Source of the DNA: Desulfurivibrionaceae bacterium
GTDB taxonomy: Bacteria; Desulfobacterota; Desulfobulbia; Desulfobulbales; JAGXFP01
Direction: 5' to 3'
DNA length: 64,000 nucleotides
Assembly: GCA_046484585.1 (NCBI GenBank)
Contig: JAWOIQ010000093.1
Location: 909-64,908, forward strand
Both the position numbers and the translations under genes were made by a program. This document shows, piece by piece, positions 9,589-30,068 of the stretch. The notes beneath the pieces are model-generated. The model saw only the letters and a program-made list of their open reading frames with translations. It did not search any database and was not told the DNA's origin. Position 1 is the stretch's first letter. Each line of letters opens with the position of its first letter.

Positions 9589-11592
9589 ATGGCTGTCAAA
9601 AGAAATGGATGTGAAGGCTGTGCGGATATAACCTGCGTGTCCACCAAGGAAGTTCTCTCCCAGGATATCGCTAAGAATGTAGTCACTGCCTATGACCGGA
9701 TCGCGTCACGTGGCATGGCCGCCTGCCTGTTCGGCTCCGGCGGCACCTGCTGTAAAAACTGTAATATGGGCCCATGCCAGATCATTGATGGAGTGGAAGA
9801 GATGATCGGGGTCTGCGGGGCTACCGCCGATACGGTCGCTTCCCGGAATATCGCGAGGACGATCGCCTCCGGAACCGCAGCCCATACCGATCATGCCAGG
9901 GAAATGATCAAGGGCTTTATCGCCACCGCCAAGGGCGAAACCGAAAACGAGATCAAGGACGTCGAAAAACTGCACAAGATCGCCGCCATTTACGATATCG
10001 AGGTGGAAGGGCGGGACAAGAATGAAATCGCTCTGGAACTCGGCGAAAAGGCCTTGGCCGAATTCGGCAGTCAGACCGACGATCCGATCACCATGCTCAA
10101 AAGAGCTCCGGAGAAGCGCCAGAAAATCTGGAAAAAACTCGGCGTCGAGCCGCGCGGTTTCGACCGGGAAGTGACCGAGATGATGCATCGCACCCATATG
10201 GGGGTCGATCAGGAATATCATAATATAATGTTGCAGGCCTCCCGCTGCGCCCTTGCCGATGGCTGGGGCTCGTCAATGCTTTCCACCGAACTGACCGACA
10301 TTATGTTCGGCACCCCGGTACCCCGCCGGGCCACGGTCGATCTCGGCTGCCTCAAACCGGATCAGGTCAACATCACCGTGCACGGGCATGAGCCGCTGCT
10401 CGCCGAGGCCCTCTGTATCGCCGCCCAGGAAGAAGACATGCAGGCTCTGGCCAAGAAGGCCGGCGCCAAGGGGATCAATCTGGCCGGGGTCTGTTGTACC
10501 GGTAACGAGATCCTGATGCGCCGCGGCATTCCGGTCGCGGCAGGCTTTGTCCAGCAGGAAATGGTCCTCGCCACCGGCGCGGTCGAGGCGATGGTGGTCG
10601 ACGTCCAGTGCGTCATGCAGTCGGTGGCCCAGGTCGCCAAGAATTTCCATACCGACATCATTACCACTAACTACCGGGCCAAGATGCCGGACGCCGTTCA
10701 TATCCAGTTCGAGGAAGAAGACGCGATGGGCAGCGCCAAGGAGATCCTCAAGAAGGCCATCTCCAATTACAAGAAGCGCAGCCCGGCCGCCTTTATTCCC
10801 ATCTCCAACAAGCTCGATGTAGTTGTCGGCTTCAGCCACGAGACCATCAACTACATGCTCGGCGGCAGTTTCCGGGCCAGCTATCGGCCCTTGAACGACA
10901 ACATCATCAATGGCCGGATTCGCGGGGTAGCGGCGATCGTCGGTTGCGACAACTATAAATATTCCGATGACGCCCATGAAATCATCGCCCGGGAGTTGAT
11001 CAAGAACAATATCCTGGTCCTGGCCACCGGCTGCGCGGCCACTTCCCTGGGCAAGGCCGGGCTGCTTCGACCCGAGGCCGCCGAGTTCTGCGGCGACAGC
11101 CTCGGCGAAGTCTGCGAGACCGTCGGCATGCCGCCGGTTCTGCATATGGGCTCCTGCGTCGATAACAGCCGGATCCTGATCGCGGCCACCGAGATGGTCA
11201 GGGAAGGGGGCTTGGGCGAGGATATTTCCGACCTGCCCGCCATCGGCACCGCCCCTCTCTATATGAGTGAAAAGGCGGTGGCCATCGGCCAGTATTTCGT
11301 GGCCAGCGGCGCCCAGGTGGTTTTCCAGAGCCTTCCGGTCAGCGGTGCCAAGGAGTTCGACAAGTACATGACCGAGGGCATGATGGAGACCTACGGCGCC
11401 CACTGGAATATCGCCGAGGATCCCAAGGAAATCGCCCGGATCATGATCGAGAAGATCGAGCAGAAGCGCGAGGCCCTCGGCATCAACAAGAAATCGGAGA
11501 GGGTTCTCTTCGACATGGATATGCGTCGTGATCTCGGCAGCGGCTCCGGCATTGGCGACGTTGGTTGCACCGGTCCGCAACACAAATCATAA
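9589..11592 (+). CDS. cooS: anaerobic Ni-dependent carbon monoxide dehydrogenase catalytic subunit
   Basis: Track ORF is 9577..11592 (TTG). ATG 9589 is preferred, with GAGG 6 nt upstream. Cys-rich N-terminus (CxxC...CCKNCxxGPC) and overall CooS/AcsA-like sequence. Confidence 0.9.
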   Translation: MAVKRNGCEGCADITCVSTKEVLSQDIAKNVVTAYDRIASRGMAACLFGSGGTCCKNCNMGPCQIIDGVEEMIGVCGATADTVASRNIARTIASGTAAHTDHAREMIKGFIATAKGETENEIKDVEKLHKIAAIYDIEVEGRDKNEIALELGEKALAEFGSQTDDPITMLKRAPEKRQKIWKKLGVEPRGFDREVTEMMHRTHMGVDQEYHNIMLQASRCALADGWGSSMLSTELTDIMFGTPVPRRATVDLGCLKPDQVNITVHGHEPLLAEALCIAAQEEDMQALAKKAGAKGINLAGVCCTGNEILMRRGIPVAAGFVQQEMVLATGAVEAMVVDVQCVMQSVAQVAKNFHTDIITTNYRAKMPDAVHIQFEEEDAMGSAKEILKKAISNYKKRSPAAFIPISNKLDVVVGFSHETINYMLGGSFRASYRPLNDNIINGRIRGVAAIVGCDNYKYSDDAHEIIARELIKNNILVLATGCAATSLGKAGLLRPEAAEFCGDSLGEVCETVGMPPVLHMGSCVDNSRILIAATEMVREGGLGEDISDLPAIGTAPLYMSEKAVAIGQYFVASGAQVVFQSLPVSGAKEFDKYMTEGMMETYGAHWNIAEDPKEIARIMIEKIEQKREALGINKKSERVLFDMDMRRDLGSGSGIGDVGCTGPQHKS

Positions 11593-11686: not shown

Positions 11687-14320
11687 ATGAAATCGGGTAG
11701 CCGTCTAGAACGGATTCTAAATTCAGGTGGTTTTGCCGTGACCGGCGAACTTGGGCCGCCGAAGAGTGGTGATCCGGAAGTTGTTCGAGAGAAGGCGCGT
11801 CTTCTTAAGGGTAATGTCGATGCCGTCAATATAACCGATTGCCAGACCGCTATTGTCAGGATGTCCAGCATCGGGGCCGGACTGATCACCCTCTCCGAGG
11901 GGGTCGAACCGGTAATTCAGATGACCTGCCGGGACCGGAACCGAATCGGCATGCAGAGCGATATCCTAGGGGCCGCCGCCCTGGGTCTGAAAAATCTGCT
12001 TTGTCTGACCGGCGATCACCAGAAATTCGGCAACCATCCCGGCGCCAAAGGGGTCTTCGACATGGACTCTATCCAGCTTTTGGGGATGGTCAGGGAGATG
12101 CGGGATGAAAAAAGGTTTCAGAGCGGCGACGAAATCAAAAACCACGAACCCCGGCTGTTTTTAGGGGCCGCCGCCAATCCCTTTGCCGAACCGGCCGACT
12201 ACCGGGCAGCCCGCCTGGGCAAGAAAGTTGCCAACGGAGCCGATTTCATCCAGACCCAGATCGTCTACAACGTCGATAAATTCAGGCAGTTCATGAAAAT
12301 GGTCTGCGATCTCGGTATCGACGAAAATGTTCACATCCTTGCCGGGGTTACGCCGCCCCGTTCCATCGGCATGGCCCGCTACATGAAAAATTTCGTCCCC
12401 GGCATGGATGTGCCGGACGAGGTTATCGACCGCCTCCGGGGGGCCGCCGACAAGGAGGATGAAGGCATTAATATTTGTGTCGACATTATCAACCAGGTCA
12501 AGGAGATCAAGGGCATCTCCGGCGTCCATATCATGGCCATCGAATGGGAAAGCGCGGTACCGGAGATCGTCAAACGGGCCGGTCTCGCCGATCGTCCGCG
12601 CTTTGACGATGAGCTTGCCACGGTGAGCCCACCCCGGGATACGCAAGTAGTTATCGGTGAAGCGAAAACCGCCGAGTCAGCCGAAGATAAAGACGAGATT
12701 ATTGCGGCGGCCAGGATCGAGGCGGAGAAGTTGATCGCCGAAGCCAGGGAAGAGGTCGCCAGAATGCGGACCCAAGCCGCTTCGACCGCCACCCCGACAA
12801 CCACTGTTCACGAAAGTATTGAATCAGACGATGCAGGAGAACACGAAATGAACGAAAGAGAACGTCAGATGGCTCTTGAAACGGTCCGGACCGGCCTTGA
12901 TGCCCTTAAAAAGTCCTTCGGACTGTCCAATGATCAATTTGAGGCCCTGGTTAAATTTGCCACTACCGAAGCTATTTTAATGAAGGAACCGCCGACCGGC
13001 GCCGCCGCAGCTTCGGCTCCTGCCACGCCGGCGAAACCGGCCGCTGCCGCGGAAACAACTCCGGCTGCGTCTGCCCGTCCTGCTCAGCCTGCTCCCGCGG
13101 TTGACACGGCCAAGGAAGAGGAAGCCAAGGCAGCTGCCGAATCCGCCAGAAAGGCCGAACTTGAGAAGAAAGCGGTGGAGGAAGCGGCCAGGAAGGCAGA
13201 GCTGGAGAAACAGGCTGCTGCCGAAACCGTTCCGCCGAAAGAGGTTAAAAAGGAAGCTGAACCTTCCGAGGCCAAGAAGAGCGCCGCCAAGCCCTCGGTC
13301 AAAAAGACCGGCGGCGGCGAAGCAGCCGGGGCTACCGCCCTGGCCCATGAGGAAACTCCCCTGGCCGAGCGTTCCACCAAGGTTGCCGAAGATAATTACA
13401 AAGTCAAATACACCGGCAAGATCAGGGAGACCGTTCTCGGCAGCGGTGACCATACCGTCAAGGTCGGCGGCGCCGATACCATGCCGTTCCAGCTCTATGA
13501 AGGCGAGATGCCGAACAAGCCCCTGATCGCCATGGACATTCTCGACTATGAGCCCGATGAATGGCCCGAGACCCTGACCCGCCATTTTGCCGGAGTGATG
13601 GACAACCCCCTGAACTGGGCCCGGAAATGCATCGATGATTATCAGGCCGAAGCCATCTGCCTGTCGCTGATGAGCACCGACCCCAACGGTATGAACCGCT
13701 CCGCCGCCGATGCGGCGAAAATCGCCGCCGAGGTCGTGAATAATATTGAAGTGCCCCTGATCCTCTGGGGCTGTGGCAACAGTGACAAGGATACCGAAAC
13801 CCTGCGGGAGATCACCTCCCTGGTCGGCGACAAGAAGGTCTGCCTGGCGCCGCTGTCCGATGCGAACTATCGCTCGATCGGCGCGACCGCCATGGCCTTT
13901 CATCACCCGATGGTTGCCGCTTCTCCCATTGACGTAAACCTTGCCAAGCAGTTGAATATTCTCCTCGAAAATCTCGGGGTTTCCCTTGATTCGGTCCTGA
14001 TCGATCCGTCCATCGGCGCCCTCGGTTACGGCATTGAATATACTTATTCGGTTATGGAACGGATTCGGCTGGCGGCAATGACCCAGCAGGACGAGAAACT
14101 GCAGGTGCCCTTTATCTGCAATCTCGGGCGCGAGGTCTGGAAGGCCAAGGAAACCAAATTGCCGACCGACGAGCTTCTCGGCGATCAAGAACGACGCGGC
14201 GTTCTGATGGAAGCCATGACCGCTTCCTGCATGCTGGTTGCCGGCGGAGAGGTTCTGATCATGCGGCATCCGCAGGCCATCGCGCTCACCAAGTCCCTGA
14301 TTGACGGACTTGTTGATTAA
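11687..14320 (+). CDS. metF/acsD: fusion protein: MetF-type methylene-THF reductase (N-term), A/P/E/K-rich linker, corrinoid Fe-S protein small subunit AcsD/CdhD (C-term)
   Basis: 877 aa uninterrupted ORF. Residues 1-~300 are MTHFR-family (LTGDH, ADFIQTQIVYN). Residues ~300-560 are low complexity with a duplicated ARKAELEK. Residues ~565-877 are the CdhD/AcsD TIM barrel (LILWGCGN, IDPSIGALGYGIEYTYS). Confidence 0.8.
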   Translation: MKSGSRLERILNSGGFAVTGELGPPKSGDPEVVREKARLLKGNVDAVNITDCQTAIVRMSSIGAGLITLSEGVEPVIQMTCRDRNRIGMQSDILGAAALGLKNLLCLTGDHQKFGNHPGAKGVFDMDSIQLLGMVREMRDEKRFQSGDEIKNHEPRLFLGAAANPFAEPADYRAARLGKKVANGADFIQTQIVYNVDKFRQFMKMVCDLGIDENVHILAGVTPPRSIGMARYMKNFVPGMDVPDEVIDRLRGAADKEDEGINICVDIINQVKEIKGISGVHIMAIEWESAVPEIVKRAGLADRPRFDDELATVSPPRDTQVVIGEAKTAESAEDKDEIIAAARIEAEKLIAEAREEVARMRTQAASTATPTTTVHESIESDDAGEHEMNERERQMALETVRTGLDALKKSFGLSNDQFEALVKFATTEAILMKEPPTGAAAASAPATPAKPAAAAETTPAASARPAQPAPAVDTAKEEEAKAAAESARKAELEKKAVEEAARKAELEKQAAAETVPPKEVKKEAEPSEAKKSAAKPSVKKTGGGEAAGATALAHEETPLAERSTKVAEDNYKVKYTGKIRETVLGSGDHTVKVGGADTMPFQLYEGEMPNKPLIAMDILDYEPDEWPETLTRHFAGVMDNPLNWARKCIDDYQAEAICLSLMSTDPNGMNRSAADAAKIAAEVVNNIEVPLILWGCGNSDKDTETLREITSLVGDKKVCLAPLSDANYRSIGATAMAFHHPMVAASPIDVNLAKQLNILLENLGVSLDSVLIDPSIGALGYGIEYTYSVMERIRLAAMTQQDEKLQVPFICNLGREVWKAKETKLPTDELLGDQERRGVLMEAMTASCMLVAGGEVLIMRHPQAIALTKSLIDGLVD

Positions 14321-18292: not shown

Positions 18293-21200
18293 ATGAGTAT
18301 ATTTTTACACATGAATATCGAAATTAATGGAAACAGCATAACGGCGGAAGAGGGGGTCACCATCCTCGCAGCCGCAGAGCGTTCGGAAATATATATTCCC
18401 ACCCTTTGCAGCGTCAAAGGCAGGAATTCCGAGGTCCCCTGCGAACTGTGCTGCGTTGAAGTTGCCGGTCGGGATGGTCTGGTCCGGGCATGCGAAACTC
18501 CCATCGAGGAAGGCATGTCAATCACCACCGATTCGAAAGCGATTACCGAACATCGCCAGGCCAAACTGGCCATTCTCGCCGAGACCCATTTCGGGGACTG
18601 CAAGGCGCCCTGCAACCTTACCTGTCCCGGCCAGATCAATGTTCAGGGCTATATTGCCCATGTCGCCAAGGGAGAATACGAGGAAGCCGTCCGCCTGATT
18701 ATGGAACGCAATCCTTTCCCGTTTTCGGTGGGCAGGGTCTGTCCCCGTTTCTGTGAAACCAGATGTCGGCGGATCCTGGTCGATGAACCGGTCTCCATCA
18801 ATCATCTCAAAAGATTTGTCGCCGACTGGTGCATGACCAACAAGATCGACCTGAAAATCGGGCGCGACAAGCCGACCGGCAAGAAAATCGCCGTTGTAGG
18901 AGGCGGGCCGGCCGGTTTGAGCGGCGCCTATTATCTGTCGCGCAAGGGTCATGATGTTACGGTCTTCGAAGCCGCCCCCAAACTGGGCGGCATGCTCCGC
19001 TACGGCTTACCGGAGTATAAAATTCCCAAGGATATCCTCGACTACGAGATCTCCACGATTCTGCGAACCGGCATCTCGGTTAAGCTCAATCAGCGCTGGG
19101 GCGAAGATTTCAATCTTCAGAACCTGCGTGACCAAGGTTATGACGCCATTTTATTGACCATCGGCGCGCCCGTCGACGAACCCCTGGATATCCCGGGATC
19201 CTCGTTGAGCAATGTTCTTCCGGCCATAAATTTCCTGAAGAACATCAATAGCGGCAAGAACATCGATTACGGCCGGCGTGCCGCCGTAATCGGCGGTAAC
19301 AACGTTGCCATGGAAACGGCCCGCTCCCTGATCAGAGCCGGGGTTGAAACCGTTACCGTGATCTATCCGCGGACCAAGACCGAGATGGCGGCCAATCAGC
19401 GCAATATCCGTGAGGCCGAAAAGGAAGGCGTCCAGTTTCTGGTGATGGCTACCCCGGTCCAGATTTCGCCGGCCGATAGCGGTCTTGATGTAGAACTGAT
19501 GCGAATGAAGCTGGGTGAACCTGACGAGAAGGGCGTGCGGAATCCCGAAGCTATTCCCGGTTCATCCAACATCATCCAGGTCGATACGGTTATTCATTCC
19601 CTGGGCCAGAAGGCCTGCGATAATGCCAGCTTTAAAGGGGGTTCTCTTGAAGAGTCCCTGGAGTTGACCCCGACCAACAATATTAAAGCCAATCCCCGTG
19701 ATTTTCTTACCAACCAGGATGGCATCTACGCGGCCGGTGACGCGACCAGCGGCCCCCGTTCGGTTATCCAATCGGTGGTGGCCGCCCGCCGCGCGGCAAA
19801 CAACATAAACAGCCAGGTGATGGGGGTAGAGAAGGAGCCCGCCGACAGCCGCTTCAATTTCAGCCGGGGCCGTTCCTTCGACGATGTCGATCTGCGTAAC
19901 TTCGAGGGCATTAAGGTCAAGCTGCGGGAGAAGATGCCGGAAAGGCCGCCGGAGACCTCCACCCAGGACTTTGACGAGGTCAAACTCGGTTTCACCGAAA
20001 AGATGGCGCTGCGCGAGGCGAAACGTTGCCTGTCCTGCGGCTGCAACGCCTATGACCGGTGCGACCTGAAGCGCTTATCCGAAGATCACAATATAAACCT
20101 CAACAAGACCGGCATGGGCAGGGAACCGGTTTATGCCAGAGATAATTCCCATCCCGTTATTCAGATCGATCTCAACAAGTGTATTTACTGCCAGCGCTGC
20201 AAGAACAGCTGCGATTACAAGGCCATCGACCTTTCCGCCGAATCCTTCGACGTCAAGGGCCGCCCGGAGAACATCTCTTTCAGGTTCAACGAGAACTGCG
20301 TGAATTGCGGCGAATGTGTCGACAACTGCTCCACCGGCGCCCTTATCAAGAAGGACCGCCTGGTCCCGATCACCAACGAAGAGGTGAGGGAGGTTCGTTC
20401 GACCTGCCCCTATTGCGGGGCCGGCTGCCAGATCATCCTCAAGGTCAAGGGCAACACCCTGATGGAGGTCGATGCCGATCCCGATCTTGCCCCCAACTAC
20501 GGCGCCTTGTGCGTCAAGGGCCGTTTCGGCCAGAAGTTTGTTCAGCACCGCGACCGGTTGACCAAACCATTAATCCGGCAGGGCGGCCAGCTTGTCGAAA
20601 CCAGCTGGGATGAGGCCCTGAACGTGGTGGCCAAGAAATTTTTCGACCTCAAGGCCATGTATGGATCGGATTCGATCGCCGGTTTCAGCTGCGCCCGGGC
20701 CACCAACGAAGAAAATTACCTGATGCAGAAATTCATGCGGACGGCGATCGGCACCAACAATATCGATCACTGCGCCCGGCTCTGACACGCTCCCACGGTG
20801 GCCAGTTTGGCCCTCACCTTCGGAAGCGGCGCAATGACCAACTCCATAGCCGACATGAAGCAGACCGACCTCTTCTTCATGATCGGCAGCAATCCCGACA
20901 CCAGCCATCCGACCATCGGCCTCCGGGTCCATCAGGCCATTGACCGGGGCGCCAAGCTCGTCGTGGTAGATCCCCGCAGAACCAGGCTGGCCGAGCGGGC
21001 CGACCTCTGGATCCGGATCAAACCGGGAACCGATGTGGCCTTCATGAACGGGATGATGAGCGTCATCCTCGCCGAAGATCTCTGGGACAAAAAATTCGTC
21101 GAGGAGCGGACCGAGGATTTCGATTACCTGAAAAGCGTGGTCGAAAAATACTCGCCCGATATCGTCGAGGAGATTACCGGGGTATCCGAGGAGCAGCTGC

Positions 21201-22420
21201 GCCAGGCCGCGAGAATGTACGCCGCCGAGGGACGGCACGCGATCTACCACGGCATGGGCATCACCCATTACGTGACCGGCACCGACCGGGTCAAGAGTAT
21301 CGCCAACCTGGCCATGCTCTGCGGCAAGGTCGGCCAGGCCGGCGGCGGCTGCAACCCCTTGCGGGGCCAGAACAATGTGCAGGGGGCCTGCGATATGGGC
21401 GCCCTGTTCAATACCCTGCCCGGCTACGGCAGCTTCGATAACAGCGAGCTTTTCAAGACCTTCGAAAAGGCCTGGAAAGTCAAGCTGCCCCGGCGGCCCG
21501 GCAAACCGGCCACCGAGGTCTGGGACAATGTCCTCAAAAAAGATATCCGCGGTCTTTACGTGTTCGGGGAGGATCCGGTAGTAGCTGATGCCAATATCTC
21601 CCATGTCCGGCAGGCCTTGGAAGAGGTTGATTTCCTGGTGGTTCAGGATATCTTCCTGACCGACACCGCCCAGATGGCCGATGTGGTCCTGCCCGCCGCC
21701 TGCTATGCCGAGAAGGAAGGGACTTTCACCTGTACCGAACGGCGGGTGCAGCGGGTCCGCAAGGCGGTGGAGCCGCCCGGCGAGGCCCGGCCCGACTGGC
21801 GGATTTTTTGCGAACTTTCGAAAAAGATGGGCTATGAGATGGACTACGCTTCGGCCGAGGATATCTTCGAGGAGATCCGCACCCTCCTGCCCCAGTATAA
21901 GGGAATCACCTATAAACGCCTTGACGAGGTCGGTCTGCAATGGCCGGTACCCAGTGAAGATCATCCGGGCACCGAGGTATTGCACACCGAATCGTTTACC
22001 AGGGGCAGGGGACTGTTTATCCCGGAGGAGTATATCCCCCCGGTCGAGCTTCCCGATGACGAGTATCCGATGTCCTTTACCACCGGCCGGGATCTGTCCA
22101 GGTATAACTTCAGCAGCATGACCGGCAAGACTCCGGAGATCGATGAGATCAGTCCGGAATGTTTTGCCGAGATCACACCCGTTGATGCAGAACGGCTTGG
22201 CATCAAGGATAAGAGCCGGGTTCGCCTGGTATCGCGGCGCGGATCGGTAGAGATGCGGGCCAAGATCACCGATCGTACCCAGGAGGGTACGGTATTCGCG
22301 ACCTACAACCATCTGGAAACCCTGGTCAACCTGCTTACCCTGGACGCCCTCGATCGTCTTTCCAGAACGCCCGAATACAAGCTATGCGCGATCCGTGTGG
22401 AAGTAGTACCCGAAAATTAG
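18293..22420 (+). CDS. fdhA: selenocysteine-containing formate dehydrogenase alpha subunit fused to N-terminal 2Fe-2S and GltD-like NAD(P)H/FAD oxidoreductase domains (Sec at TGA 20783-20785)
   Basis: ORFs 18293..20785 and 20798..22420 share a frame. Read-through gives [30 protein letters not shown], the FDH Sec motif. GxGxxG VVGGGPAGLSGA, 4Fe-4S motifs and a molybdopterin domain are present. ATG 18311 is an alternative start. Confidence 0.85.
20797..20818 (+). promoter_or_regulatory. candidate SECIS hairpin for fdhA UGA
   Basis: GGT-GGCCA [GTT] TGGCC-(CTC bulge)-ACC, starting 12 nt after the TGA. Confidence 0.55.
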
Positions 22421-22470: not shown

Positions 22471-25400
22471 ATGGCAAAAGCAAAGCAAAAGAAAACCGGC
22501 GCCCCAGCCAGGAAATCCGCCAAGACCGCTGCCCAATCGGGTAGCATGATGGTGGTCGGCGGCGGCGTCGCCGGTGTCCAGGCGGCTCTAGATCTCACCG
22601 AGCTCGGCTATTACGTCTATCTGGTCGAAAAAAGCGCGGCGGTCGGCGGGGCCATGGCCCAGCTGGATAAAACTTTCCCGACCAACGACTGTTCGCTCTG
22701 AATTCTCGCACCTAAATTGGTTGAGGCCGGTCGGTCTCCAAATATCGAAATTCTGAGTAACGCTGATTTGCTTTCCCTGTCGGGCAAGCCGGGTAATTTC
22801 AAGGCCGAGTTACAACTGCGGCCCCGTTATATCGATGCGGATAAATGTACGGCCTGCGGGCTTTGCACTACATATTGCCCCCGGCATCTGGCCGATTCCT
22901 TTAACGAAGGGCTCGATCTGACCAGGCCGATCCATATCGATTATCCCCAGGCGGTTCCGGCCTCCTATTTCATCGATCCCGAGGCATGTCTGTATCTCAA
23001 GCACGACACCTGCCAGATCTGTGTGCCGACCTGCCGCAGCAACGCGATCGATTTCAGCCAAAAGCCCAAAAAGATCAGCCTCGATATTGGGGCGGTGATC
23101 ATGGCTCCCGGTTTCGGCCGGGTGCCGGATGAGGCCCTGACCCAATACGGTTACGGCCAGCATCCCGACATTGTCACCAGCATTGAATTCGAGCGCCTGC
23201 TCAATCCGTCCGGTCCCTTTGAGGGCGAGGTCCGCTGTCTGTCCGATAAACGCCATCCCAAAAAGATCGCCTTTATCCAGTGCGTCGGCTCCCGCGATCT
23301 GGGTTGTGGAAACGGCTATTGCTCGTCGGTCTGCTGTATGTACGCGATCAAGGAAGCGATGGTGGCCAAGGAGCACGACCCCGAATGCGAGATCACCATC
23401 TATTACATGGATATCCGCACCCAGGGCAAGGACTTCGACGCCGCCAGGATCAAGGCCGAGGAACATTACGGTATAAAGTTTGTCAGGGCCAGGGTTGCCG
23501 ATGTTATTCCCTGGAAGAAAAATCTGAAGCTGACCTATTCGACCATGGACGGCGTCCACCGTTTTGACGCCTATGACATGGTGGTCCTGGCGGTGGGTCT
23601 CGACTCTCCGACCGATGCCCGGGCGCTTGCCGATATTACCGGCGTCGAACTGGATAAATATGATTTTTGCAAGACCGGATTTTTCGATCCCCTGGCCAGC
23701 AGCCGGGACGGCGTCTACGCCATCGGCGCCTTTCAGGGCCCCAAGGATATTCCCGAAAGCGTCACCCAGTCCAGCGCCGCGGCCGGCATTTCCGCCGGGC
23801 AGATCAGGGCCGGGCGCGGCAAGGATATCGTTATCAAGGAATATCCGACCGAGAAAGCCCTGAAAGCCGCGGATGAGCCCCGGATCGGCGTTTTTGTCTG
23901 CCACTGTGGGATCAATATCGCCGGCGTGGTGGATGTCCAGAAGGTCGATGATTACACCAAGGACATGGAAGGCGTGGTCTATCACGCCCAGAGCTTGTAC
24001 AGCTGTTCCCAGGACGCCCAGAAGGTGATCAAGGAGATGATCCAGCTCCACGATCTGAACCGGGTGGTTATCGCGGCCTGTTCGCCCCGAACCCATGAGC
24101 CGCTGTTTCAGGAGACCCTGAAAGACGCGGGGCTGAACCGCAGTCTTTTTGAAATGGTCAATATCCGCGACCACTGCTCCTGGGTCCACGCCAACGAGCC
24201 GGATAAAGCCACTGATAAATCGATGGATCTGGTTCGGATGGGTATTGCCAAGGCGCGTCATATCCAGCCGCTGCCCGAGCAGACCGTGCCGGTAACCGAC
24301 AAGGCAATTGTCATTGGCGGCGGCATCGCCGGGATGACCGCGGCCCTGAATCTCGCCGACCAGGGGTTTCAAACGACGATCATCGAAAAGAGCGCCCAGC
24401 TCGGCGGGCATCTGCTTGATCAGCGCTATACCCTGTCGGGCGAGAACATGACCGACTATCTTAAGAAGGTCACCGACCAAATTGCCAAGAATAAAAAAGT
24501 CGATGTGCTTACCAACAGCGAACTGGCTGAGGTGGGCGGTTTCGTCGGGAACTTCTCTTCGGTGGTCAGGTCCGGCAAGGGCAGCAAGGTCTCGGAGCAG
24601 ACCATCGACCACGGGGTGATAGTAGTCGCCACCGGCGGCCGCGAACATGTGCCGGCCACGGTGCTGGGCAAAAAAGTTCCGCAATCGGACAAGTTCATTA
24701 CCCAGAAGGAGTTGGAGATCAGGTTGGCCGACAAAGGTAAGAATCGGGCTCCGAAATCCGTGGTCATGATCCAGTGCGCCGGCTCCCGGGGCGACGATCT
24801 TGCCTATTGCAGCAAGACCTGTTGCACCCAGGCCGTCAAAAACTCGCTTAAGATCAAGGAGATCAATCCGGATTCCCAGGTTATCGTGCTCTATCGGGAC
24901 ATGCGGACCTACGGCTTTGCCGAGGACGCTTACCGCGAAGCCCGGGAAAAGGGAGTGATCTTCATTCCATATTCCATGGATAAAAAACCGAGCCTCAGCG
25001 CCAAGGGAAGCAAAGCCGAAGTCGCTTTTTACGACCCGATTCTTCAGGATGATGTTACCATTAATCCCGACCTGGTCGCCCTGAGCGTCGGAACCGTTCC
25101 CGAGAGCACTGCGGAACTGAGCAGGCTCTTGAAGGTGCCGGTAAATGCCGATGATTTTTTTCTTGAGGCCCATGTCAAACTGCGGCCGGTGGAAATGCCG
25201 GTTGCCGGGGTCTTCCTTTGCGGCCTGGCCCATTCGCCGAAACCGCTGGATGAGATCATTGTCCAGGCCCAGGCGGCGGCGGCCAAGGCGTCCATACCCC
25301 TGGTCAAGGGACAAGTCAGCGTCGATCCGATTGTTTCCAGCATCGATAAGGACAAGTGCATCGGCTGCCGGCTTTGCGCCACTCTCTGCCCTTATCAGGC

Positions 25401-25578
25401 CATTGAAATGGTAAAGGTCGACAAGAAACCGAAAGCCGAGACCGTGGTGGCCTCCTGTAAGGCCTGCGGGATCTGCGCCGCGCATTGCCCGACTTTTGCC
25501 ATATCGATGGGCGGTTTCACCAATGAACAGATTACTTCCCAGATCGAGGCCTTTGGCGAGGCCCTAGAGGAGGCTTAA
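22471..25578 (+). CDS. hdrA: selenocysteine-containing large HdrA-like flavoprotein with tandem HdrA modules and C-terminal ferredoxin domain (Sec at TGA 22699-22701)
   Basis: ORFs 22471..22701 and 22717..25578 share a frame. Read-through gives [21 protein letters not shown], where canonical HdrA has DCSxCIL. Two GxGxxG sites ([18 protein letters not shown]). C-terminal [12 protein letters not shown] and [12 protein letters not shown] motifs. Confidence 0.85.
22723..22738 (+). promoter_or_regulatory. candidate SECIS hairpin for hdrA UGA
   Basis: GAGGCC [GGTC] GGTCTC, a 6 bp stem with one G-U pair, starting 22 nt after the TGA. Confidence 0.5.
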
Positions 25579-25582
25579 CAAT

Positions 25583-26188
25583 ATGAGCAAGGAAGAATTC
25601 AACCCCAAAATTCTCGGTTTTCTCTGCAACTGGTGCTGCTATGCAGCCGCGGATGCAGCCGGGGTTTCCCGATATCAGTATCCGCCCAATCTGCGGACCA
25701 TCAGGATAATGTGCACCGGCCGCCTTGATCCCGCCTTCGTGATGCGCGGTCTGGTCGAAGGTGCAGCCGGCATTTTCACCGGCGGCTGACAACTCGGTGA
25801 ATGCCATTACCAGGTTGGTAATTATGACGCAATGGGAGTAAATGGTCTGATCAAGAAAGTGCTGACCGAGACGGGTTTGGATCATCGACGATTCGATCTC
25901 AAATGGGCCTCCGCCGCCGAAGCGCCGCGCTTCGTCAAACTGATCACCGAATTTACAGCCAGGATTAAAGAACTCGGCCCCTTAGGCGAGGCGGAAGGGA
26001 TCAGCCCCGAAGAGGCAAAAAACCGGGCTGAAAAAGCGCTGGCCATGGTCAGTGACCGTAAATTGCGGATGGGTTTCGGCAATCTGACCAAGACCCTGCG
26101 CAAGGAAGTGCCTAATCTGAGCGATAAAGCAATCGACCAGGCCATCGATGAAAAATTGAGCAAGACTCTTTCATCCCTGGCCGATTAA
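25583..26188 (+). CDS. mvhD: selenocysteine-containing MvhD/FlpD-like hydrogenase iron-sulfur (delta) subunit (Sec at TGA 25787-25789)
   Basis: ORFs 25583..25789 and 25832..26188 share a frame. Read-through gives GIFTGG-U-QLGECHYQVGN, where the MvhD family has GCxxGxCHY. N-terminal LCNWCCY motif. GAGGAGG RBS. Confidence 0.85.
25806..25822 (+). promoter_or_regulatory. candidate SECIS hairpin for mvhD UGA
   Basis: ATTACCA [GGT] TGGTAAT, a perfect 7 bp stem starting 17 nt after the TGA. Confidence 0.6.
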
Positions 26189-26216
26189 ATCGGTAATATT
26201 CTGAAAAGCTGAAAAA

Positions 26217-26249
26217 CGGTTAAACTGGTAAAGTTTAGCCGTTTTTTTT
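26217..26249 (+). terminator. intrinsic terminator after mvhD (end of the Wood-Ljungdahl cluster)
   Basis: CGGTTAAAC [TGGTAAA] GTTTAGCCG, a 9 bp stem with one G-U pair, followed by T8. Confidence 0.8.
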
Positions 26250-28134: not shown

Positions 28135-28932
28135 TTATTCATTAAAGACAGTATGTTGGTGCCATTCAAGATAAGATGTCAATGGTAGGAATTTTCGGGG
28201 TTTGATAATTTCCGCGCCATGATAGAAACAAATCAGATCGCTTGTTCTCCTGTCTCCAGAGGTTAGTAGTTTTGATGAGACGGCGACACGCAATTGGTTT
28301 GTTATTGTAAGAAACCCACGATCAAACAAACGATCAAATGTAGCACTTAGGCATAAACCGTTATGTGGATCCGTTCGATGCTCTTCAGAAACACTCCATG
28401 GTATAATGTGGCTCGCCACCAGACATTCTTTAATCCGTAATCCTGTAATACAACATGTATTTTCGTAACTACTGAGAATTGCCTCACGAAAAAATGATTG
28501 ATGGGTACGTGTTTTTTGAGGCGTGATTTTCTCAGATGGTCCTTTGGGGCGATTTACATCAGCCTGAATTTCTTCTTTCGTTATTGTCCTTAAACCCAAC
28601 TCGCCTTTCAACTGCTCAGCTTCTGAGACAAGCTGATTCCAATCTTTATGAAATTCTTCCCATATTTTACGATCCAGTTTGCTGGAGTGAGAAAGCCCAG
28701 ACACTTTTTGTCTGCTAAGCTCTGGATCAAGAGAACCAAAATTACCTAACTTCCTAGCAATGCTTGCCGGTGAACGTTTTATAAGATTAGCGAGTTCAAT
28801 TACATCAGGATTGTTTGCTTTGGTTTTCTTGAAAGGGATACGGCAGTAAAGATCAAACGCGAGAATCAATTCTTCGCGCGTCCAAGGAGCACCATATTTT
28901 TCTGGGTTGCCATGTATAATCATTTGTCTCAA
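28135..28932 (-). CDS. HNH_2-type (COG3183-like) putative restriction endonuclease
   Basis: 265 aa. N-terminal GAPWTREELILAFDLY...SPASIARKLGNFGSLDP. C-terminal CCITGL...ASHIIPWS...DPHNGLCLSATFDRLFDRGFLTI. Confidence 0.75.
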   Translation of the reverse strand: MRQMIIHGNPEKYGAPWTREELILAFDLYCRIPFKKTKANNPDVIELANLIKRSPASIARKLGNFGSLDPELSRQKVSGLSHSSKLDRKIWEEFHKDWNQLVSEAEQLKGELGLRTITKEEIQADVNRPKGPSEKITPQKTRTHQSFFREAILSSYENTCCITGLRIKECLVASHIIPWSVSEEHRTDPHNGLCLSATFDRLFDRGFLTITNQLRVAVSSKLLTSGDRRTSDLICFYHGAEIIKPRKFLPLTSYLEWHQHTVFNE

Positions 28933-30068
28933 TGGCTAATTATATTGGTCAATTTAGTTCTATGTGTTGGGGAGCTGTCGGGAAAACTTTGAAATCGTGC
29001 TGCTTCCCTGTGAGTGATTGGCCTGTGCTGCTCGGGGTGCAAATAGCGGCCTTTTTCAGGTTTATAGAATTCGGTGCGTATCGTAACGGAAGGCCTGTTC
29101 CACCAGAGTCGGCCAAACAAATCAGTTCCTCCTGATTGTTTCCGAATCCAACATTGAGGCGTTAACTCAGGAGCAATACGTTGTAAGTCAAAACGATTCA
29201 TCCCTTCACGAGGTATTGCCCTATATCTTTTCCGACTGAGTTCGGTTGGATTCCTCCCGAAGTGTAAATCCAACGGAGGATCAATATTTCTAATTTCAGT
29301 CCCTTCCGGAGAAGGTAAATCAGCAATAGCGTCTTTTACTGTTTTCCATTTAGGGGGTGTTGACAGATATTCCTCCCTATTGAAGGGAAGTGTTAACGCC
29401 TTTCCGTTGCCATTGGGATTAAAATGAGTTTTTCGGGGTGGAAACAAAATGGATGGATCTGCGAATTTACAACCGATTATGAAAGCTCTGGTACGAGTTT
29501 GAGGAACCCCGTAATCCGCAGCAATTAATTTGTCCTGCCAGACTTGGAAGCCGAGAGACCTTGCTGCTTCGACAATTTCACCATTCTCAAAGGTCCCAAG
29601 CAACTGAGGAACATTCTCCATGACAAAAATTGATGCCTCAGATCTTTCGACAACCTCTAAATAAGGTCGCCACAACTCTTTTCGTGGGTCATTTTCACGA
29701 TTTTTGTTTAAGAGACTGAAACCCTGGCAAGGAGGTCCACCAATTACAACATCAGCTTTGGGGATTTCAATTTTGCTTTGTTTGAGTATTTCGACAATGT
29801 CGCCTGCAACACTATGTGGGCCGAAATTTTCATTGTACGTGTTAACGCAAAATTGATTAAAGTCGTTTGCCCAAACGGATTGAAAAGGTTGTCCAAAAAC
29901 CTCGGAGAAACCTAACGACATCCCGCCCGCCCCTGAAAATAGGTCTATAAGGCGATATCGGTGCGGATTTTGTAGTAGCTCACCTGAGCATCGAGAATGG
30001 TAAGTCGCTTCGTCTTCTTTTAAAATAAAAGATTTGTCTATTTCTATCGTATTTTCAGTTTGATACAT
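28929..30068 (-). CDS. DNA (cytosine-5)-methyltransferase with divergent/short C-terminus
   Basis: 379 aa with motif I DLFSGAGGMSLGF, motif IV GGPPCQGFS, motif VI ENV and motif VIII QTRTRAFIIG. The C-terminus is ...FQSFPDSSPTHRTKLTNIISH* (TNII where GNAV is expected). ATGA overlap with the HNH_2 gene. Confidence 0.85.
   Translation of the reverse strand: MYQTENTIEIDKSFILKEDEATYHSRCSGELLQNPHRYRLIDLFSGAGGMSLGFSEVFGQPFQSVWANDFNQFCVNTYNENFGPHSVAGDIVEILKQSKIEIPKADVVIGGPPCQGFSLLNKNRENDPRKELWRPYLEVVERSEASIFVMENVPQLLGTFENGEIVEAARSLGFQVWQDKLIAADYGVPQTRTRAFIIGCKFADPSILFPPRKTHFNPNGNGKALTLPFNREEYLSTPPKWKTVKDAIADLPSPEGTEIRNIDPPLDLHFGRNPTELSRKRYRAIPREGMNRFDLQRIAPELTPQCWIRKQSGGTDLFGRLWWNRPSVTIRTEFYKPEKGRYLHPEQHRPITHREAARFQSFPDSSPTHRTKLTNIISH

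Follow-up and report, generated by a model that had tools for sequence, protein, structure and literature searches.

A 64 kb stretch of a Desulfurivibrionaceae metagenome-assembled genome (MAG) from NCBI (contig JAWOIQ010000093.1; the whole stretch is called the window below) was found to carry an mvhD gene crossed by a conserved in-frame TGA, which we propose is read as selenocysteine (Sec). The gene lies at 25583..26188 on the + strand and comprises 201 codons, from an ATG at 25583 to a TAA stop at 26186–26188, with Sec at codon 69. MvhD is a small [2Fe-2S] adaptor from which electrons reach the flavin of electron-bifurcating enzymes of the HdrA type, its cluster being known from solved homologues. 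The Sec-type gene is conserved across an order, the Desulfobulbales, is mostly missed by public annotation and is an added member of an already known selenoprotein family.

Two open reading frames (ORFs), 25583..25789 (68 codons) and 25832..26188 (118 codons), share a common frame, as the first-pass annotation of this DNA had claimed, with an offset of 249 (83 × 3), and the sole stop between them is the TGA at 25787–25789. Read through this TGA, the gene gives ...EGAAGIFTGG-[TGA]-QLGECHYQVGNYDAMG..., and the peptide that spans it is GIFTGG-U-QLGECHYQVGNYDAMGVNGLIK. When Cys was substituted for the stop, a single PF02662 (FlpD/MvhD) domain extended across the TGA (residues 10–132, E 3.6e-46, score 156.6 bits where the cut-off is 22.3, profile positions 1–123 of 123). 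Taking this continuous domain together with the evidence set out below, we conclude with high confidence that the two ORFs are one Sec-containing MvhD gene. The NCBIfam models for HdrA2 (the fused MvhD part) and VhuD also match the product, as do MvhD chains in the PDB (E 1e-41 to 1e-43) and, more broadly, the solved MvhD, ElpC and VhuD chains (E 1e-26 to 1e-43).

Database homologues of the product number more than 2,500, and those inspected are approximately 200–290 residues long with Cys at the aligned position of the motif GGCxxGxCHY. In an alignment of 20 sequences the TGA at residue 69 fell on the near-invariant first Cys column of this motif, in agreement with the placement originally suggested. 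The rest of the MvhD cysteine set (CNWC, MC(T/S)GR and GGCxxGxCHY) is present as C15, C18, C44 and C74. The TGA and the following ATG at 25832 are separated by 14 codons, QLGECHYQVGNYDA (25790..25831, + strand), that are translatable by read-through alone.

To assess conservation, one genome per species was scanned for orthologues, yielding 80 Desulfobulbales loci with protein identities of 64–98 %, among them Desulfurivibrio, Desulfobulbus, Desulfocapsa, Ca. Electrothrix and Ca. Electronema. Codon 69 is TGA in all 80 of these species-level genomes, in all 82 distinct orthologous sequences used for codon-level comparisons and on three metagenome contigs as well. The proportions of nonsynonymous (pN) and synonymous (pS) differences were computed against the window gene and averaged over the 80 comparisons. 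The 60 codons upstream of the TGA had a mean pN of 0.074 and pS of 0.643, the 14 codons from the TGA to the ATG at 25832 had 0.005 and 0.449, and the 35 codons that follow had 0.224 and 0.711. The frame is thus translated on both sides of the TGA, with pN/pS of 0.1–0.3 either side, and its most protein-constrained part is the stretch that read-through alone can supply. The ATG at 25832 is itself unconserved as a start, being TTG, CTT, ATT or TTA in some orthologues.

The sequence directly after the TGA is also constrained as RNA. A proposed bacterial Sec insertion sequence (SECIS) element was delimited at 25793..25836 (+ strand) from the RNAalifold consensus of 74 sequences. It consists of a 6 bp upper stem AUUACC/GGUAAU (25806–25811 with 25817–25822), an apical loop AGGUU (25812–25816) and a 7 bp lower helix (25793–25799 with 25828–25836) with an internal loop above it. 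This two-helix structure was paired in 99.1 % of cells, against 27–69 % in shifted controls. The first-pass annotation had described the upper hairpin as ATTACCA GGT TGGTAAT, a perfect 7 bp stem 17 nt past the UGA. This sequence is present at 25806–25822, its first base the 17th nucleotide past the TGA, but the conserved form is a 6 bp stem with a 5 nt loop AGGUN, completed by the lower helix, and not a 7 bp stem with a triloop. The seventh pair, A25812–T25816, is unconserved: 14 sequences end the Val codon in A or C, and five encode Phe there in place of Val.

Comparative evidence for the element comes from synonymous codon choice. Across the 82 sequences, mvhD has 69 conserved codon sites for degenerate amino acids, and five of the 69 use a single codon throughout: CAT +6, TAC +7, CAG +8, GGT +10 and AAT +11, all within the upper stem and loop of the hairpin. 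The chance of five random conserved sites landing within six codons is approximately 1e-5. Four of the frozen third positions lie in the arms, where each pairs across the stem, and the remaining one, the G of CAG, is a loop base. The next most biased synonymous sites are GGC −1, CAA +1 and GAA +4. For Leu +2 and Gly +3 the third position is nearly always C or U opposite G, keeping the lower-helix pairs, whereas elsewhere in mvhD Leu favours CTG and Gly uses all four codons. Cys-type homologues (n=8) use GGC, GGA, AAC, CAC and CAA freely at the hairpin codons; the full codon set was kept by one of the eight and absent from the other seven.

The element was then compared with the published bacterial SECIS (bSECIS) model, which specifies an apical loop of 3–9 nt of the form N1-G-[G/U]-N-N2, a stem of 4–16 bp, a spacing of 16–37 nt from the UGA and a minimum free energy (MFE) of at most −7.5 kcal/mol (PMC13188914). 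The mvhD element lies within this pattern, with loop A-G-G-U-U, a stem of 6–7 bp and a spacing of 22 nt. Searching the window with Rfam at gathering thresholds gave no match of any kind, to bacterial SECIS included. A covariance model built from the mvhD element scored 97.9 bits on itself and matched nothing else in the window, missing the hairpins of the neighbouring fdhA and hdrA genes. A covariance model of all three hairpins, earlier suggested as a finder of further selenoprotein genes in the genome, is therefore unlikely to work.

Several observations weigh against the Sec reading. The upper hairpin alone has a free energy of −5.1 kcal/mol (z −0.67 relative to shuffled sequences), and with z-scores of −0.67 to −0.95 the hairpin is not unusually stable. 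For the consensus structure the window gives −7.4 kcal/mol, narrowly missing the −7.5 limit of the model, and the mean over the 74 sequences is −6.0. The upper stem is invariant and so offers no compensatory changes, while double changes in the lower helix were seen at one pair only, in three sequences. The MFE fold of the 48 nt past the UGA is another hairpin. Finally, profile, Rfam and ARAGORN searches found none of selA, selB, selD or tRNA-Sec within the 64 kb window.

The competing MFE hairpin, with 90.4 % of its cells paired, was rejected because 49 of the 74 sequences disrupt its central pair and because it does not account for the frozen third positions of GGT and AAT. Extending the stem through the internal loop gave no improvement. 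The element thus stands above chance because of its frozen synonymous sites among orthologues and not because of its folding energy, indicating that a SECIS element within a coding region can be recognized in this way, from a set of 82 sequences, even where its folding energy is unremarkable. On the combined evidence of the TGA in every locus, the low pN beyond it, the frozen hairpin, the fit to the bSECIS pattern and the matching arrangement in the adjacent hdrA (68 of 68 loci, below), the earlier reading of the mvhD TGA as Sec was upheld.

As for the selenium machinery, many genomes of Desulfobulbus, a member of the same order as the window, encode SelB complete with all its domains, and Desulfobulbus also has Sec-type mvhD (L069, L076 and L078), which supports the Sec reading indirectly. 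Among the matches listed in two protein searches, SelB came only from Dissulfuribacterales and Desulfobulbus and none from Desulfurivibrionaceae. Of the 88 fetched loci scanned with ARAGORN, 87 were free of tRNA genes, as was the window; the exception was a locus of Dissulfuribacter thermophilus (L087, MAGO01000011.1). This locus encodes a 90 nt tRNA (10748–10836) that matches the Rfam tRNA-Sec model at 58.8 bits (gathering threshold 47) with the anticodon GCA (Cys). It is located directly past an hdrL-mvhD-fdhA cluster, flanked by selB and by an fdhA whose Sec position is TGC, and all three positions corresponding to Sec in that cluster are TGT or TGC. We take this tRNA to resemble the described GCA-anticodon tRNA(Sec)-like tRNAs, which serve either UGC-to-Sec recoding or the delivery of Cys by SelB.

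The rival explanation that survives best, although we consider it improbable, is recoding of the UGA to Cys or another standard amino acid, either by a Cys-charged tRNA(Sec)-like tRNA acting through SelB or by near-cognate read-through. In its favour, the amino acid predicted at residue 69 is read from sequence alone, and the GCA-anticodon tRNA that adjoins selB and the Cys-type fdhA/hdrL/mvhD cluster in Dissulfuribacter points to non-canonical Sec/Cys decoding in related Desulfobacterota. However, the Sec signature is complete, combining UGA at a Cys position with a SECIS element that fits the consensus, and a matching signature is found on fdhA, where Sec is the classic Mo/W ligand. MvhD/VhuD has furthermore been experimentally verified as a selenoprotein family, and it is hard to explain why a costly UGA and hairpin would be kept in more than 80 species for Cys, which TGC could encode.

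Less probable still is a truly split gene, in which an N-terminal peptide of 68 residues and a C-terminal protein of 118 residues, starting at ATG 25832, are produced independently and then assemble. Gene callers do give exactly these two products, and the ATG is present in the window. Such a split would nevertheless leave untranslated the 14 most constrained codons, including the CHY motif, and would remove the conserved Cys position from the protein; moreover, the ATG is replaced in some orthologues and no Shine–Dalgarno sequence precedes it. It is very improbable that the TGA marks a pseudogene with a nonsense mutation or arose from faulty sequencing or assembly. Either could have accounted for the single window, but 80 genomes that were assembled independently, and three metagenome contigs, carry the identical TGA at protein identities as low as 64 %, amid free synonymous divergence and purifying pN/pS values on both sides. 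Together, the conserved TGA, the pN/pS pattern and the unconserved ATG exclude pseudogene, sequencing error and functional split. A genetic code with TGA as a sense codon (Trp or Gly) is equally improbable: one public gene call does render the homologous TGA as W (P0001), but 18 of the 38 Pfam-supported genes in the window end normally at a TGA, and an ORF-based scan gave only three credible in-frame TGAs, in fdhA, hdrA and mvhD and all Cys-aligned, which excludes such a code.

The first-pass annotation had noted recoded UGAs at conserved Cys positions in three adjacent genes, and the presence of an in-frame TGA at a Cys-aligned position was confirmed for each. The gene upstream of mvhD, hdrA (HdrL-like, 1035 codons, 22471..25578, + strand), has an in-frame TGA at 22699–22701 ('NDCSL*ILAPK') followed by a hairpin GAGGCC-GGUC-GGUCUC at 22723–22738; the HdrA redox pair in this operon is Cys-Ser-Leu-Sec. 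The TGA and its invariant hairpin were present in all 68 related loci whose flank extended to hdrA, while three Cys-type hdrA paralogues with the motif (L085–L087) have TGC or TGT without the hairpin. Further upstream, fdhA (1375 codons, 18293..22420, + strand) includes an NAD(P)H/FAD/Fe-S module as an N-terminal fusion and has an in-frame TGA at 20783–20785 ('HCARL*HAPT') with a hairpin at about 20797–20818; the fdhA of locus L001 has the TGA and hairpin as in the window. The apical loops are AGUUU in fdhA, GGUC in hdrA and AGGUU in mvhD, with UGA spacings of 18, 27 and 22 nt respectively.

The mvhD start lies 5 nt past the hdrA stop, and the order hdrA-mvhD is common to all related loci. A Shine–Dalgarno-like GAGGAGG (25567..25573, + strand), to which we ascribe this function from its position, lies 9 nt upstream of the mvhD ATG within the 3′ end of hdrA. 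Downstream, at 26211..26247 (+ strand), a hairpin resembling an intrinsic terminator has a 16-pair stem followed by the T run TTTTTTTT and is the probable end of the fdhA-hdrA-mvhD transcription unit. The three genes close a Wood–Ljungdahl cluster of folD, carbon monoxide dehydrogenase (CODH), a fusion of methylene-tetrahydrofolate reductase (MTHFR) with CdhD, acetyl-CoA synthase (ACS) and CdhD. The fusion is an 877-residue ORF at 11687–14320 (+ strand) with an MTHFR domain at residues 6–299 and a CdhD domain, the corrinoid Fe-S protein small subunit, at 582–823; locus L089 has separate genes of 308 and 318 residues. Approximately 2 kb downstream of the operon, at 28135–30068 (− strand), an HNH endonuclease gene (265 aa) has a 4 nt overlap with the gene for a C-5 cytosine DNA methyltransferase (379 aa), forming a small restriction-modification-like pair.

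Paralogous modules with Cys at these positions, approximately 52 % identical, were found outside the Wood–Ljungdahl cluster in Desulfobulbales and relatives (L084–L091). Their gene order is hdrL-mvhD, with fdhA next in L087 and L090. Both versions occur together in at least one genome, assembly JAHLLM01, all-Sec at L020 and Cys-type at L085 (hdrL-mvhD without fdhA), a pairing that recalls the selenium-dependent Vhu/Vhc isoenzymes of Methanococcus. Locus L086 encodes P0006, a Cys-type protein of the most similar Cys-type group (54–59 % identical) that also lies within a Wood–Ljungdahl cluster. At L086:6205–6250 it has TGC at the Sec position yet retains the hairpin codons CAT TAC CAG ... GGT AAT, which may be the relic of a Sec-to-Cys switch or may be chance. 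Variation was also seen at the C-terminus. At L003:200–1060 a Sec-type MvhD (75 % identical) has an extra tail of approximately 85 residues that is rich in Lys, Ala and Pro and histone-H1-like, and the closest Cys-type relatives have instead an extension of approximately 55 residues.

For the decoding of the UGA, we propose that the hairpin, which begins 4 nt past the codon, would present its apical AGGUU loop 22 nt downstream, that SelB carrying Sec-tRNA(Sec) would bind this loop, and that the UGA at 25787–25789 would then be decoded as Sec instead of causing termination. Dependence on SelB and tRNA-Sec, the presence of selenium in the MvhD protein and the role of Sec69 are predictions from the gene and its family. 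In this scheme mvhD would be the last gene of an fdhA-hdrA(L)-mvhD unit directly past the Wood–Ljungdahl genes, an operon that is partly shown, and similar recoding of all three genes would yield an all-selenium formate dehydrogenase/HdrL/MvhD module.

The position of Sec69 suggests a role close to the [2Fe-2S] cluster. The MvhD family has five conserved cysteines, and in Methanothermobacter marburgensis MvhD Cys16 (residue 18 here) is treated as an 'additional' cysteine near the cluster, leaving Cys13, Cys42, Cys67 and Cys72 as the likely ligands. Sec69 is therefore probably one of the four ligands or lies directly beside the cluster; that this assignment was reached only by elimination from five conserved cysteines counts against it. 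In the same protein, His68 and Asp71 of the Cys67 loop approach HdrA Cys202/Cys205 in conformational state 1a. By analogy, the Sec69 loop would face the HdrA redox pair, here Cys-x-x-Sec, which would put the two selenium atoms along the route that leads from the cluster through the Cys/Sec pair to flavin adenine dinucleotide (FAD).

Taken as a whole, the proposal that Sec69 is a selenolate ligand of the cluster, that it forms a relay with the Cys-x-x-Sec of HdrL and that FdhA-HdrL-MvhD is an all-selenium isoenzyme is tentative, and we regard it as rather less probable than its opposite. If it were true, MvhD would hold a natural selenium-ligated iron–sulfur cluster, and a selenium relay would carry electrons from the cluster to the bifurcating FAD, across a distance that has so far lacked an explanation. 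An all-selenium module would also be kept beside an all-cysteine paralogue across the Desulfobulbales, cable bacteria included, and CO2 fixation in this order would be tied to selenium supply.

Public gene calls explain how the gene has been missed. They give either the 118-residue C-terminal fragment (P0025) or a protein with Trp at the Sec position (P0001), and no full-length mvhD orthologue above 61 % identity appeared among the matches listed. In the source MAG, the genes that flank fdhA, hdrA and mvhD have the protein accession numbers MFO7605838 and MFO7605841, leaving just two numbers in between, and at least one of the three therefore seems to be without a protein record. The selenium dependence predicted for the formate dehydrogenase/HdrL/MvhD module linked to the Wood–Ljungdahl pathway in the Desulfobulbales, cable bacteria included, is thus hidden by current annotations. 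Consistent with this, the fdhAB-hdrL-mvhD cluster of Desulfurivibrio dismutans AMeS2 (RS08735–RS08725), a species of the same family, has been described as lying beside and being co-expressed with Wood–Ljungdahl genes in a paper that mentions selenocysteine 0 times (PMC12142623). Four Desulfurivibrio loci in our comparison (L033, L046, L049 and L052) carry the mvhD TGA.

MvhD/VhuD has been known as a selenoprotein in methanogens since the 1990s and in sulfate reducers since 2009. The family (PF02662) is among the experimentally verified prokaryotic selenoprotein families, with the motif CxxU and two Sec residues in archaea. Among sulfate reducers, Desulfobacterium autotrophicum HRM2 has four Sec-containing mvhD genes (mvhD1, mvhD2, mvhD3 and mvhD5) with an in-frame UGA, each after a Sec-containing hdrA or hdrL and some beside fdhA/fdhB. 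This species belongs to a different order, the Desulfobacterales, and its Sec sites may or may not coincide with codon 69.

The closest archaeal counterpart is VhuD, subunit D of the F420-non-reducing hydrogenase of Methanococcales and Methanopyrus, which is of the same family PF02662, has the same [2Fe-2S] adaptor role beside HdrA and is likewise encoded directly after hdrA. Its two Sec positions are 50 codons apart. The CxxU motif and this gap together place the second Sec at or beside Cys67 (Cys16 + 51 in M. marburgensis), which is residue 69 here, and mvhD Sec69 thus probably corresponds to the second Sec of VhuD, the archaeal positions being derived from the literature and not from sequence. 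The two systems differ in several respects. VhuD has two Sec residues and the Desulfobulbales protein one, the CxxU position being TGC or TGT in 82 of 82 sequences. The recoding signal here is a hairpin inside the coding sequence, as in bacteria, while VhuD has an element in the 3′ untranslated region in common with hdrA; the 3′ flank of mvhD here contains a terminator-like hairpin. The partners here are a formate dehydrogenase of the fused NAD(P)H type and an HdrL-type HdrA, and that of VhuD is a [NiFeSe] hydrogenase. As a signal, the mvhD element is like the SECIS of Escherichia coli fdhF in being located directly 3′ of the UGA with a small N1-G-[G/U]-N-N2 apical loop, although its sequence is dissimilar to those of the fdhA and hdrA hairpins in its own operon.

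The bacterial protein for which a comparison of Sec sites is available is BamF of the Geobacter metallireducens class II benzoyl-CoA reductase, an MvhD-like adaptor with Sec19. Like the protein described here, BamF is a bacterial MvhD homologue with one Sec and a Sec-containing HdrA-like partner; a bifurcating FAD receives electrons from its [2Fe-2S] cluster. Its Sec19, however, replaces the 'extra' Cys near the cluster (MvhD Cys16, residue 18 here). In the Desulfobulbales this residue stays Cys (codon −51 TGC or TGT, 82 of 82), and Sec follows 51 residues later, within the GGCxxGxCHY loop predicted to dock on the Cys/Sec pair of HdrA. As it is probably the second site of VhuD, the Sec69 site is probably not new for the family, but it differs from that of BamF, the structurally described bacterial member.

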